A DNA stretch of 64,000 nucleotides from Mobula hypostoma (taxonomy: Eukaryota): contig NC_086107.1 in the NCBI RefSeq assembly GCF_963921235.1, positions 107,882,001-107,946,000 of the forward strand, read 5' to 3'. Shown here piece after piece: positions 1-4,276 of this stretch. The notes below the pieces were generated by a model, which was not told where the DNA came from, ran no database searches, and saw only the letters and a list, made by a program, of their open reading frames with translations. The position numbers and the translations under genes are program-made. Each line of letters begins with the position of its first letter. Within the stretch, counting starts at the first letter, position 1.

Positions 1-95
1 TCGTTCTCTCTACACCCAAACCACCTGCCCACTTCCTCTGTGAGCTATCTGATCCAGTAGCTGCTTCAGAGATTTGTTCAAAGCTTCAGGCTGAA

Positions 96-640
96 TTACC
101 CAATGTTGCACTGACAGAAGCTGTTCCTGAATCTCCGAGTGCATGCCTTCAGGCTTCTGTATCTCCTTCCTGATGGTAGCAATGAGAACAAGGCATGTCC
201 TGAGTCATGGGGGTCCTTTTTGAGACGTCGCTCCTTGAAGGTGTCCTGGGTACTATGGAGGCCAGTGCCTGTGATGGAGCTGACTGAGTTTACAAGTCTC
301 TGCAGCTTAATTTGGTCCTGTGCAGTAGCCCCCCGCCCCCCTTCCCATCCCAGATGGTGATGCAGCCAGTTAAATGCTCTCCACGGTACATTTGTAGAGG
401 TTTGAGAGGATTTTGGTGACATACTAAATCTCCTAATGAATTATAGCCACTGTTGTGCATTTTTTTGGAGCGGCATCGATACATTGGGTCCAGGTTAGAT
501 CCTCAGAGATGCTGGCACCCAGGAACTTGAAATTGCTCACCCTTTCCACTTCTGATCCCTCGATGTGATCTGGTGTGTGTTGCCTCATCTCACCCTTTCT
601 GAAGTCCACAATCAGTTTTTTGGTCTTACCAATGTTGAGT
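96..640 (-). mobile_element. Rex1/Babar-like LINE, decayed 3' part of RT ORF
   Basis: ORF 96..422 ends ...HALFSLLPSGRRYRSLKACTRRFRNSF, the C-terminal motif of this LINE group; the same motif recurs at 49450 and 52023. Confidence 0.75.
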
Positions 641-659
641 GCAAGGAGTAGTATTGTTG

Positions 660-1216
660 GAGCAATGCTGTTGGTCTCCTTATTTAAGAAAGGATGTGCT
701 GACGTTGGAAAGGGTACAGAGAAGATTCACTAGAATGATTCCGGGAATGAGAGGGTTAACATATGAGGAACGTTTGTCCGCTCTTGGACTGTATTCCTTG
801 GAGTTTAGAGGAATGAGGGGAGACCTCTTAGAAACATTTCGAATGTTGAAAGGCATGGACAGAGTGGATGTGACAAAATTGTTTCCCATGATGGGGGAGT
901 CTAGTACGAGAGGGCATGACTTAAGGATTGAAGGATGCCCATTCAGAACAGAGATGCAAAGCAATTTTTTTAGCTAGAGGGCGGTGAATCTATGGAAATT
1001 GTTGCCACGGGCGGCAGTGGAGGCCAAGTCATTGGGTGTATTTAAGGCTGAGATTGATAGGTATCTGAGTAGCCAGGGCATCAAAGGTTATGGTGAGAAG
1101 GTGAGGGAGTGGGACAAAATGGGAGAATGGATCAGCTCATGATAAAATGGCGGAGCAGACTCGATTGGCCGAATGGTCGACTTCTGTTCCTTTGTCTTGT
1201 GGTCTAATGGTCTAAT
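660..1216 (+). mobile_element. CR1 LINE 3' fragment
   Basis: WSPYLRKDVLTLERVQRRFTRMIPG...LGLYSLEFR (ORF 639..977), followed by 3' UTR and (ATGGTCT)-type tail. Confidence 0.9.
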
Positions 1217-1440
1217 GCATTGTCAGAGGCAGTATTGGCGGAGTGCTGCCTCGTGAGAGATGCAGTATGCAGGAAGCATTGCATTGTCAGAGGGGCAACG
1301 CTGAGGGATTGTTACTCTGTCCAAAGACAGAACCAAAGGAGTACAGTATTGTTAGGGAAGCAAGACTGAGTGAGCATTGCACTGTTTGAAAACTGGTACT
1401 GAGGGAATGATGCTCTATCAGAGGGGCAATGCTGAACTGC
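1217..1440 (+). repeat. Degenerate tandem repeat of ~30-bp units resembling the Deu-SINE segment 'gtactgagggagtgctgcactgtcagagg'
   Basis: Recurrent gcattgtcagagg / ctgaggga / gcactgt words. Confidence 0.5.
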
Positions 1441-1564
1441 TTGCTAATTTACTTATATGCTATTAGATGCTATGTCAGGCTAAGAAGGGGTTGCTCCCCA
1501 TCTAAATGCAGTTCCCTCTTGATTAATCTCTTGGAATATTTCAGAAATGTGCCGAAAAGTCCGA

Positions 1565-2610
1565 GGCTTTTTCCCAGGGCTGGAAATGGCTAGCATGAGA
1601 GGGCACAGTTTTAAGGTGCTTGGAAGTAGGTACAGAGGAGATATCAGGGGTACGTTTTTTACGCAGAGAGTGGTGAGTGCGTGGAATGGGCTGCCAGTGA
1701 CGGTGGTGGAGGCGGATATAGAAACATAGAAACATAGAAAATAGGTGCAGGAGTAGGCCATTCGGCCCTTCGAGCCTGCACCGCCATTTATTATGATCAT
1801 GGCTGATCATCCAACTCAGAACCCAGCCTTCCCTCCATACCCCCTGACCCCTGTAGCCACAAGGGCCATATCTAACTCCCTCTTAAACATAACCAATGAA
1901 CTGGCCTCAACAGTTTGCTGTGGCAGAGAATTCTACAGATTCACCACTCTCTGTGTGAAGAAGTTTTTCCTAATCTCGGTCCTAAAAGGCTTCCCCTCTA
2001 TCCTCAAACTGTGACCCCTCGTTCTGGACCTCCCCAACATCGGGAACAATCTTCCCGCATCTAGCCTGTCCAATCCCTTTAGGATCTTATACGTTTCAAT
2101 CAGATCCCCCCTCAATCTTCTAAATTCCAACGAGTACAAGCCCAGTTCATCCAGTCTTTCTTCATATGAAAGACCTGCCATCCCAGGAATCAATCTGGTG
2201 AACCTTCTTTGTACTCCCTCTATGGCAAAGATGTCTTTCCTCAGATTAGGGGACCAAAACTGCACACAATACTCCAGGTGTGGTCTCACCAAGGCCTTGT
2301 ACAACTGCAGTAGTACCTCCCTGCTCCTATACTCGAATCCTCTCGCTATAAATGCCAGCATACCGTTCGCCTTTTTCACCGCCTGCTGTACCTGCATGCC
2401 CACTTTCAATGACTGGTGTATAATGACACCCAGGTCTCGTTGCATATGATGGGGTCTTTTAAGAAACTCCTGGACAGGTATATGGAGCTGAGAAAAATAG
2501 AGGGCTATGGGTAACCCTAGGTAATTTCTCAGGTAAGGACATGTTTGGCACAGCTTTGTGGGCCGGAGGGCCTGTATTGTGTTGTAGGTTTTCTATGTTT
2601 CTATGTTTCT
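1565..2610 (+). mobile_element. CR1 3' end interrupted by a younger CR1 at 1721-2445
   Basis: RGHSFKV...FFTQRVVSAWNGLP; the sequence resumes at 2446 and ends in a (TTCTATGT)n tail at ~2590-2610. Confidence 0.8.
1721..2445 (-). mobile_element. Young CR1 LINE 3' fragment
   Basis: Uninterrupted 170-aa RT C-terminus (LYKALVRPHLEYCVQFWSP...FFTQRVVNL) and (ATGTTTCT)n tail; near-identical to 40640-41370. Confidence 0.92.
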
Positions 2611-2667
2611 AAGTAGCGACTCTTTGCATGCAGCTCCAATGGGGAATCTTCAAATATTCCATTTTAG

Positions 2668-2927
2668 GACTACTGCTCACTACCTATTACGCCGCTGGCG
2701 TTTCGGGCAGCAATGAAGGTCCTCCATCTCTGGTGGTGTTCAGGGCTTCCTTCATCGTGTCAGTAGCTTCCTCAAGGTTTTCACTACTACCAGTTGTGCA
2801 AATCCCGGGTGGAGACTCAGGAATACCATCACACTCAGATGTAGAAGGATTCTTTGTTGCTGTTTGCTTATCAATTTAGTTTTACCAGTCAGGGTTGTTA
2901 GCTCTGAGCTGAACCCCCAGCCCGGAG
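2668..2927 (-). mobile_element. RTE-type short non-autonomous element fragment
   Basis: The minus strand ends ...gatggaggaccttcattgctgcccgaaacgccagcggcgtaataggtagtgag (WRTFIAA-like RTE 3' end). Confidence 0.5.
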
Positions 2928-3718
2928 TATATGTGTACCTATATTAGTTCTACATTGCATTACATAATAAAAGTACAGTAAGTTACAGTAAGAAATATCT
3001 ATATAGTTATTGTTTTATTGTAATTTATTGTGTTTTAAATTATGTATTGCAATGTACTGCTACTGCAAAACATATATTTCACAGCACACAGTGTGCCAAT
3101 GATATTAAATACCTGATTCTGATTCTGACTCGGTTACTACCATCAGACTCCTGAAGTGCCGTGGATAACTCCATTCACCTCAACACTGAAGTGATTCCAC
3201 AAACTATTAACATTCAAGGACTCTGCAACTCATGTTTTCAGCAATGTTTATAGAGGCAAAGAGCACTACTGCATAGAAACAGGCCCTTTGGCCCATCTAC
3301 TCCATGCCAAACTGTTATTCTGCCTAGTCCCATCAACCTCTATATCCTCCCCATCCTTGTACTCATGTATGTACGTATTTATTTTTTTTTTGTGTTTGCA
3401 CAGCTTGTCTCCTTTTGCACATTGTTTGTCAATCATTGTGTGTAATTTTTCATAGTTGCTACTGTAGTTTTTGTTCAGCTGCATGATTCAGGATATTTAT
3501 AAGGACAGCTGTGTAAAAGGTGCCCATAGGATCATTGGGGACCCAAGCCATCCCAACCACAGTCTATTCCAGCTGCTACCATCCCGGAAACGGTACCACC
3601 CATAAAAGCCAGGACCAACAGTCTCCGGGACAGCTTCTTCCACCAGGCCACCAGACTGATGAACTCACACTGACTTGAGTGTACTCTATATTACATTGAC
3701 GGTTCTATTTATTATAAG

Positions 3719-4276
3719 ATTCGTCCATCGTCATCGATGAAGACCTCGACACCATTGATGGTGTCGAGACTAGCGCTTGATTTGGATTTAAGTGAGAGAG
3801 AGTTGCGCAGTGTCAGCCTCACTATCTCTTCCCAATTCCCATCTGGATCCAGTGGCAAGACAGAGTCGAGACGGCTGGAGATGCAGTGGATGACCAGGAC
3901 ATCTTCTGTGTCTTTCTGTGTCTTGCCTTGCTCTACACGTTCCACGACGCTTGCAGAGACCGCCTTCTTGACCGTTGGACCTTCCGTTGGTCTCGTCCAC
4001 TCAGTCCGCCGGAGTCTGTCTTCACATGCTGGGATAGACATCTCCCTATCTCACCCAGGGTTTGAGACCCGTCGGCTACCCTCACCTGGTTTAGCCGGCT
4101 TGTCGAAGCCACTGCCCGGGGTGTGGCCGCTGTCGCATGCAAACAGCTACGGGGAGCCACAGGTGAGAACTGAGTTTCAGGTGGGGACCAAAGGTGGACT
4201 AACCACCCTGAAAAGGACACGACATGTTCCCCCACCAGAGGTGCTACCCCTCCCTGACACCCCATACACTCCTTTA
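3719..4276 (-). mobile_element. RTE-type non-autonomous (bipartite) retroelement with long TSD
   Basis: 27-bp direct repeat tacattgac(g/t)gttctatttattataag at 3692-3718 and 4277-4303; no coding capacity; perfect 10-bp hairpin ctcgacacca-ttga-tggtgtcgag near the 3' end; ribozyme-like 5' end. RTE assignment is by resemblance. Confidence 0.7.
4081..4263 (-). ncRNA. Candidate HDV-like self-cleaving ribozyme
   Basis: Minus strand: P1 GGGGUGU/ACACCCC, P2 CUCACCUG/CAGGUGAG, P3 GGC/GCC, L3 starting UCCCCG, GGGCAG after P1, P4 GGCUU-cgac-AAGCC, J4/2 GGCUAA, in HDV order. Confidence 0.65.

Follow-up and report, generated by a model that had tools for sequence, protein, structure and literature searches.

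Close to the start of a 64,000-nt stretch of the Mobula hypostoma genome (the window: RefSeq assembly GCF_963921235.1, contig NC_086107.1, positions 107,882,001 to 107,946,000), a 558-nt, decayed copy of a non-coding retroelement on the minus strand opens with ~190 nt that fit the nested double pseudoknot of the hepatitis delta virus (HDV) ribozyme. Judging from sequence, this is probably an HDV-like ribozyme that would release the element's RNA at its first base, after which a long interspersed nuclear element (LINE) would copy it. The sequence fits the HDV fold, its core letters are conserved, helices P2 and P4 covary, the element bears the hallmarks of insertion, and the fold stands at its 5′ end. 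Two departures from the known architecture run through the analysis: a hairpin of 19 nt within loop L3, and a 5′ strand of P1 that occurs twice in tandem. The segments of the fold, in window coordinates, are as follows.

4272-4264, minus strand: first copy of the P1 5′ strand with its AU spacer, GGAGUGU-AU here and GGGGUGU-AU in most copies; the proposed true P1
4263-4257, minus strand: second copy of the P1 5′ strand, GGGGUGU; seven Watson–Crick pairs with 4124-4118
4256-4168, minus strand: J1/2, 89 nt, a structured insert with internal hairpins
4167-4160, minus strand: P2 5′ strand, CTCACCTG as DNA, CUCACCUG as RNA; T4159 comes next
4158-4156, minus strand: P3 5′ strand GGC; pairs with 4127-4125
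4155-4148, minus strand: L3 proper, TCCCCGTA as DNA, UCCCCGUA as RNA, with U4155, C4154 and C4153 (P1.1), and G4150
4147-4129, minus strand: L3 hairpin, GCUGU (4147-4143), loop TTGCATGCG as DNA, UUGCAUGCG as RNA, ACAGC (4133-4129)
4128, minus strand: unpaired G between the L3 hairpin and P3′
4127-4125, minus strand: P3′ GCC, invariant
4124-4118, minus strand: P1′ ACACCCC, invariant
4117-4112, minus strand: GGGCAG, whose GG at 4117-4116 is the 3′ strand of P1.1
within 4111-4096, minus strand: P4 hairpin GGCTT-CGAC-AAGCC, 6 bp in the family
4095-4089, minus strand: J4/2 GCUAAAC with the candidate catalytic C4094 (GGCTAA reads at 4096-4091)
4088-4081, minus strand: P2′, the 3′ strand of P2, CAGGTGAG as DNA, CAGGUGAG as RNA

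These segments follow one another in the order P1-J1/2-P2-P3-L3-P3′-P1′-P1.1-P4-J4/2-P2′, that is, as the HDV nested double pseudoknot, with U4155, C4154/C4153, G4150, G4117/G4116 and C4094 all placed in HDV order. The P1 base at the cut is a G, as the class requires, and two 5′ strands are candidates for P1. P4 is more stable than its shuffles (z −3.6), its first pair being U·G in the window copy. A first-pass annotation, made from the letters alone, had described this HDV-like architecture; every segment of its helix list lies at the minus-strand coordinates it gave, and fold order, conservation and the rarity of such sites bear the architecture out.

Rarity was gauged with a descriptor of our own, comprising a 7-bp P1 with an initial G, J1/2 of at most 120 nt, P2 of at least 6 bp, a 3-bp P3, an L3 that begins U-Y-C-N-N-G and spans at most 40 nt, P1.1, and C-N-R-A ahead of P2′. 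On both strands of the window it matches once, at this site; first-order Markov sequence that reproduces the window's dinucleotide content gives two matches in 45 Mb. A loose descriptor of this kind would yield around 300 chance matches genome-wide (7 Gb, both strands), and the energy of the nested fold is unremarkable, so that one might think of a chance resemblance in a GC-rich repeat. We regard that explanation as hardly credible: only about 0.006 matches are expected per window, perfect helices of 7 bp and 8 bp coincide with the terminus of an element, the site is conserved in unrelated contexts, and P2 and P4 covary.

Conservation was examined first within the genome (3.48 Gb searched, 200 contigs), in which the element occurs as a younger family (W) and an older family or families (O), both compared with the window copy. 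Copies within one genome decay neutrally, and we therefore took only differences between families as evidence. Between the majority letters of W and O there are no differences in both P1 copies, P2, P3, P3′, P1′, J4/2 and P2′, compared with 19 of 89 positions in J1/2, 2 of 8 in L3 (the NN positions only) and 6 of 16 in the region of P4, counting its loop along with the stems. Because the body downstream is also about 80% alike as far as nucleotide ~400, the ribozyme core is the best-kept part of the element but not the sole part kept.

In an alignment of 40 copies (30 W and 10 O), 95.9% of helix cells are paired, against 29–51% with the partners slid. Two-sided changes occur only in P4 (2 pairs) and the L3 hairpin (1 pair); within J1/2, a stem drawn by RNAalifold (alignment columns 45–59 with 79–93) has two pairs that change on both sides between W and O. 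P1.1, the pairing of CC with GG, shows no covariation: one pair is C-G in all 40 rows and the other in 33 of 40, the 6 unpaired rows stemming from a search pattern in which A was fixed there. C4094 is invariant in all 40 rows, and in 14 of 14 rows of an alignment that includes 6 of the more distant relatives described below; the relative L149 has the segment with the J4/2 C deleted. U4155 and G4150, which would form the trans wobble metal site, do not change between W, O and the relatives, and the two bases between them vary.

The relatives come from metagenomes. We selected 79 loci by exact match to 18 nt of the window, from ACAGC to GG, and scored them with a covariance model built on the ribozyme's 3′ core: 9 are real relatives at 55–92 bits, one more reached 13 bits, which is noise, and 69 gave no match. 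One of the nine, L121, is an O-like element, and two, L100 and L103, are near-identical. In the eight other than L121, neither J1/2 nor the downstream body can be aligned with W or O. The core is thus kept across lineages that share nothing else. Outside the search word the relatives keep GGC, UCCA(C/A)GAA, GCUAAAC and GCUGU (GUUG in L121); inside it they also keep P1′, P3′ and GG, the invariance of P1′ (ACACCCC) being partly imposed by the search patterns. Their P2 reads CUCGGCCAG/CUGGUCGAG, compared with CUCACCUG/CAGGUGAG in W, and their P4 CCGUC/GACGG. Their form of P2 and L3 has no match in the genome of the window.

Covariation was read from 16 sequences (15 distinct rows) fitted to the model, a fit that somewhat favours the structure. 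Both sides change in 7 of 22 pairs: 2 in P2, 4 in P4 and 1 in the L3 hairpin. Paired cells amount to 95.1% and the covariation score to 0.270; with slid partners the figures are 19–57% and no more than 0.117. The two pairs in P2, of eight, change from A-U to G-C and from U-A to A-U, in 5 sequences each, and the four in P4, of six, change across lineages, while the GGC strand of P3 is the same in all 15 distinct rows. Covariation had been named as a check in the first-pass annotation; compensating pairs bear out P2 and P4, and P1, P3 and P1.1, which never vary, receive no such support. By eye, three further pairs extend P2 outward, joining the three bases before P2 to the three after P2′ (4078-4080), one of them with a compensating change from C-G in W to U-A in the relatives. 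Just ahead of P2, CACUCAG (4168-4176) is the only part of J1/2 shared with distant relatives (L100, L133 and L144).

The first departure from the known architecture lies between the strands of P3. Where the class has a 3-bp P3 closing an L3 of 7–8 nt, P3 here is 3 bp, but the loop it closes measures 28 nt: 8 nt that fit L3, the 19-nt hairpin (−5.2 kcal/mol) and one G. The extra hairpin claimed by the first-pass annotation is real and conserved, with the same stem and different loops in W, O and 9 of 9 distant relatives. Its self-complementary GCAUGC loop, in comparison, is kept in W, O and L121 but absent from the other eight relatives, and is not a general feature; loops among the relatives vary in letters and in length (7, 7, 9 and 10 nt). 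The closing pair of the hairpin is G-C, G·U or A-U: among the first 100 of 452 copies, A stands on the 5′ side in 17, with U opposite in 15, and G stands there in 79, with U opposite in 43. An alternative P3, in which GGC would pair with the first three bases of the hairpin, is disfavoured because the A-U variant of the closing pair would break its pairing. Variation in L3 proper is confined to the N positions 4152 and 4151 (CC, AA or AC) and to 4149 (U or A), leaving U-CC-NN-G common to W, O and the relatives.

Most likely the hairpin would stack on P3 as an outward extension, leaving U-CC-NN-G free for P1.1 and the metal site. It follows the eighth nucleotide of L3, the site at which the genomic HDV ribozyme tolerates the loss of a nucleotide. 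Since the two helical stacks of the HDV fold are parallel (bioRxiv 10.1101/2022.09.22.508989), a helix continuing P3 would lie beside P4. The Rfam models of the HDV-like class permit no long L3, and the absence of any Rfam match to the site, detailed below, fits the earlier suggestion that searches with a fixed L3 would miss it.

The second departure concerns the 5′ end. Two GGGGUGU strands lie 9 nt apart, and either could in principle pair with P1′. In the window copy a G-to-A change at 4270 makes the first read GGAGTGT (4272-4266), so the second alone pairs perfectly with 4124-4118, and it was from the second that the first-pass annotation predicted a cut 5′ of G4263, correctly placing that base 13 nt from the end of the direct repeat. 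The family places its 5′ end elsewhere. In 30 aligned W copies, GGGGTGTAT immediately precedes the P1 of that annotation. As an unbiased sample we tallied by eye the 5′ ends of the first 100 of 1,313 matches to a W word: the first P1 copy is whole in 70 (62 with GGGG and 8 with one G changed to A, 5 of these being of the GGAG type of the window), lacks one G in 8 and two in 6, is reduced to a shorter 3′ part in 6 and is missing in 10, of which 7 retain AT ahead of the second copy. The 9 nt farther upstream are unrelated between copies. The first copy is also recognisable by eye at about 60 of the first 100 of 323 O places, and 4 of the 5 relatives that reach the 5′ end start at it, with the twins L100 and L103, which have a single copy, counted once. 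In a run from another organism, 146 contigs diverge at ~4269 into unlike continuations.

These counts bear on whether the second strand (4263-4257) is P1 and a cut 5′ of G4263 sets the 5′ end, which we consider improbable. A cut there would lose 9 nt that W copies keep whole in 70 of 100 and at least partly in 90 of 100, so the RNA that was copied must begin at the first G; mapped against G4263, only 10 of 100 copies lack the upstream 9 nt. O and four of the five relatives likewise retain the first copy, and the AT left in 7 of the 10 copies without it fits 5′ truncation rather than a cut at a G. Besides its perfect pairing in the window, the second strand has conservation on its side: it is kept in W, O and 3 of the 6 relatives that reach that far (L121, L144 and L149 have the doubled GGGGUGU-AU-GGGGUGU intact, in L133 and L152 it has decayed, and L100/L103 have a single copy), although the J1/2 around it is not, and its only conserved partner is P1′. 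The single copy of L100/L103, too, reads most simply as the second, with three transitions after it. Nevertheless, the first G of the family, at 4272, is exactly the predicted cut of the fold if the first copy serves as P1.

The first 26 nt of the element (4247-4272, minus strand; GGGG-N5-GGGG-N5-GGG-N-GGGG in the family) also fit the usual G-quadruplex motif. Such a quadruplex would overlap both P1 strands and compete with P1; the relatives have only three close G-runs.

Our preferred reading, an HDV-like ribozyme releasing the RNA at the first base of the element, would run as follows. The element would be transcribed either from outside, by read-through, or from an internal promoter; the ribozyme would fold with the first GGGGUGU as P1 and cut 5′ of 4272; the RNA thus freed would begin with the first base of the element; and a LINE enzyme would recognise its 3′ hairpin and tail and copy it by target-primed reverse transcription at a new site. 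Catalysis, the P1 copy used, the source of the transcript and the partner enzyme are all predictions of this scheme.

Several observations weigh against it. First, P1, P3 and P1.1 never vary, so covariation is silent on the pseudoknot helices other than P2, and the nested minimum-energy fold of the 189 nt, pseudoknots excluded, is no better than its shuffles (z +0.73). Second, W, O and every relative have G-C at the cut site, where HDV and CPEB3 have a G·U wobble that binds Mg2+ (bioRxiv 10.1101/2022.09.22.508989). Third, a 19-nt insert adjoins the catalytic core. Our literature search found no report of a helix in L3, although Webb 2009, Webb and Luptak 2011 and Ruminski 2011 might hold a precedent, and a look-up of terms in PMC10879173 returned no mention of one. 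Fourth, Rfam 15 gave no match anywhere in the window at the gathering score, nothing relevant at E ≤10 (the sole row being a 15-bit RUF1 match on the opposite strand) and no match at E ≤1 for seven copies and relatives. Fifth, the second GGGGUGU is without a settled role and may pair with P1′ in an alternative state. Sixth, no autonomous partner LINE was found. Finally, the data from public runs are Logan contigs, 18 of the 24 runs being labelled ‘RNA?’ by guess; the element family is present in the contigs of all four runs examined, which carry no starts or ends and are silent on expression and on cleavage.

A precise 5′ end could also arise from a transcription start, and the same letters might then be ribozyme-shaped without being catalytic any longer, serving as a protein-binding scaffold or an internal promoter. 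That P1 stays frozen whereas P2 and P4 covary hints at some further constraint on its letters; the G-C pair at the cut and the large L3 insert point the same way, and L1Tc unites promoter and ribozyme in 77 nt (PMC8256844). We nonetheless think this rather unlikely, because the unpaired letters that are conserved are those the HDV mechanism needs (the U and G of L3, CC/GG and the C in J4/2) and because the observed 5′ end coincides with the cut that the fold predicts for the first P1 copy. Cleavage would, moreover, be compatible with a promoter role.

P1′ with its flank reads CCACACCCC (4118-4127), and both P1 strands (4257-4272) are its complement. We presume that CCACACCCC resembles CACCC-box (KLF/Sp-type) sites, which might explain the invariant P1. 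More tentatively, and with more doubt than belief, the family could represent a distinct and ancient delta sub-class, in which the L3 hairpin would be a sixth helix, ‘P3.1’, two tandem strands competing for one P1′ would form a two-position device, and the letters of P1 would be frozen since the GGGGTGT/CCACACCCC words would also serve in the DNA as promoter boxes, as in Pr77/L1TcRz. Were this so, a cut at the first site would give a full, replication-competent RNA, and pairing or cutting at the second would give another state, for example a dead-end RNA of lesser length or a 5′ end set free.

The element that carries the predicted ribozyme has the following further parts; as the first-pass annotation had proposed, the site lies at the 5′ terminus of a short retroelement flanked by a target-site duplication.

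4303-4277, minus strand: 5′ target-site duplication CTTATAATAAATAGAACAGTCAATGTA, identical to the 3′ copy at 26 of 27 positions
4276-3719, minus strand: the element, 558 nt, non-coding, bracketed by the 27-nt duplication
4276-4273, minus strand: extra TAAA between the duplication and the first G-run, not shared by other copies
4080-3768, minus strand: non-coding body, about 80% alike between W and O to element nucleotide ~400 and less after
3767-3746, minus strand: 3′ hairpin UCGACACC-AUCAAU-GGUGUCGA, followed by a tail that ends in ACGAUGGACGAAU and runs to 3719
3718-3692, minus strand: 3′ target-site duplication, one mismatch against the 5′ copy

Across the family the tail reads GACGAAC and then runs on in AAC or CCAA repeats. 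Direct repeats of at least 10 nt flank 24 of 29 copies and abut the first G-run in 16 of 29; the 27-nt duplication of the window copy is about twice the 8–14 nt found in the other 28 copies analysed. The duplications, the hairpin with its AAC tail, the lack of coding capacity and the lack of a tRNA-like head together identify the element, by its sequence features, as a non-coding retroelement of the non-LTR kind (lacking long terminal repeats) resembling a short interspersed nuclear element (SINE), with a target-site duplication, a 3′ structure and tail, and no reverse transcriptase (RT).

None of the open reading frames of 109, 110 and 191 amino acids in the window copy matches Pfam or is retained in O. 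The AU spacer and the first G of the second P1 copy form an AUG that is kept in all lineages (4263-4265, minus strand), with a frame that runs to 3933; in W, 19 of 28 copies keep its 110 codons open, compared with no more than 72 codons in 11 O copies and about 10 in the relatives. Coding capacity in this frame was judged to be chance, since the frame is short in O copies and has no Pfam match. A tRNA-like head or polymerase III boxes were considered and dropped after ARAGORN found none in the element.

The element is abundant, with thousands to ten thousands of copies in the 3.5-Gb genome. For W, a first look returned 4,682 candidates, of which the 40 scored are all full-length and 90–100% identical, and a 5′ word of 17 nt, preceded 18 nt upstream by A or T, has 1,313 exact matches, against 11 for a reversed control. 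Words of 17–18 nt from O match exactly 245 and 128 times, with none for the controls; O elements are also ~540 nt long and are 67–82% identical to the window in the ribozyme where the alignment reaches at least 150 nt. No tandem arrangement was seen, each of 30 loci holding one copy.

O elements are nested at one fixed site of an AT-rich repeat at several loci (L034, L035, L037–L039, L051; L062–L073), which points either to an amplified composite or to a preferred target; a 23-nt word of the repeat matches at 2,283 places when up to 3 mismatches are allowed. Four older copies, in which P1.1 is mutated and ~270 nt upstream are shared, had been considered as evidence of read-through by an inactive ribozyme. 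That upstream sequence is the unrelated AT-rich repeat, which continues differently in 12 of 12 retrieved copies, and the mutation was fixed by the search pattern, so this line of evidence was rejected. On contig C5, at ~123.9–124.5 Mb, nine or more O copies with the same upstream letters are spaced at 20–40 kb, which looks like a segmental or tandem duplication carrying the element. In the window itself, positions 1-3690 on the minus strand, downstream of the element, hold more interspersed repeats and LINE-like fragments.

The search for a partner LINE covered the RT domain RVT_1, with 332,529 first-look candidates in the genome, of which the 150 scored look like one L1-like family. One of its loci, L061, has an intact ORF1-like frame of 233 amino acids, an ORF2 of 1,262 amino acids with endonuclease and RT domains, and a poly(A) tail; it is L1-like and was rejected as the partner. 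An exclusion pattern behind the conserved GGTCATCCACTG, placed after element nucleotide ~400, matched once; in 276 kb, the tail motif was not found outside known copies, and the 61 matches of the covariance model are all known copies.

L3 is part of the catalytic core, and searches set its length at 7–9 nt. A helix kept there across distant hosts would mean that an extra domain is tolerated in the core and perhaps put to use there, and that HDV-like ribozymes of this form escape the current censuses; the rules of the original HDV-like searches were indeed too restrictive (PMC4035085). The family is also a very abundant non-coding retroelement, headed by a predicted ribozyme, that lies outside ribosomal DNA (rDNA) and trypanosomes and offers thousands of genomic copies from which to read its 5′ ends directly, and its doubled P1 strand poses the question of how a cut site is selected. 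Our literature search, which left repeat libraries aside, found no report of an element of this kind in a genome of vertebrate size.

The association of HDV-like ribozymes with the 5′ ends of non-LTR elements is already known. They occur at the 5′ ends of RTE elements, among others. R2, R4, Dong, baggins and L1Tc each carry a ribozyme 5′-terminally, and for the last four cleavage is reported to fall at the element's 5′ end (PMC3774820). Like the present element, these five have a 5′-terminal nested double pseudoknot with a long J1/2 and a variable P4, a predicted cut at the element's first base and a proposed release from a co-transcript; J1/2 reaches 216–498 nt in silkmoth R2, P4 is variable, and the ribozyme of the jewel wasp has an odd L3 spacing (PMC3774820). 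In L1Tc, promoter and ribozyme are combined in the same 77 nt, Pr77/L1TcRz (PMC8256844). Unlike the R2-type ribozymes, the present one has a 19-nt hairpin in L3, a tandem P1 5′ strand, a G-C pair at the cut and a frozen P1, the P1 of Drosophila R2 showing extensive compensatory change (PMC3774820); unlike theirs, its host element is non-coding, has no site specificity and makes duplications of 8–14 nt (27 nt in the window).

The short internally deleted elements (SIDEs) of R2, for which a role of the ribozyme has been described as for R2 itself (PMC6765202), and NARTc are closer in form: they are short, look internally deleted and combine a 5′ ribozyme with a 3′ hairpin and tail, and without RT (PMC3414825, PMC3383444, PMC6765202). 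They differ in that here the parent LINE was not found, the copies number thousands to ten thousands in a 3.5-Gb genome, and the element is tied neither to rDNA nor to the polycistrons of trypanosomatids.

With the genomic HDV ribozyme we take the likeness to run letter by letter. Both have an L3 of 8 nt that starts U-C-C and has G at position 6, the equivalents of U20 and G25, as well as two C-G pairs in P1.1, a J1.1/4 stretch and a C in J4/2; in HDV, L3 is 7 or 8 nt long, and the pairs G1·U37 and G25·U20 bind Mg2+ (bioRxiv 10.1101/2022.09.22.508989). The present sequence differs from it in the extra hairpin after L3 position 8, the 89-nt J1/2, the short P4 and the G-C pair at the cut, and in belonging to a retroelement rather than to a circular RNA replicon. 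The SINE-like hammerhead elements of schistosomes are likewise non-coding, high-copy carriers of a self-cleaving RNA (PMC6765202), but they use another class of ribozyme, are arranged in tandem and are transcribed by polymerase III, whereas no tandem copies occur here. Relative to these known systems, the differences here are an L3 that carries a helix, a P1 strand present in duplicate, G-C pairing at the cut, a P1 that never varies and a high-copy host element without coding capacity.

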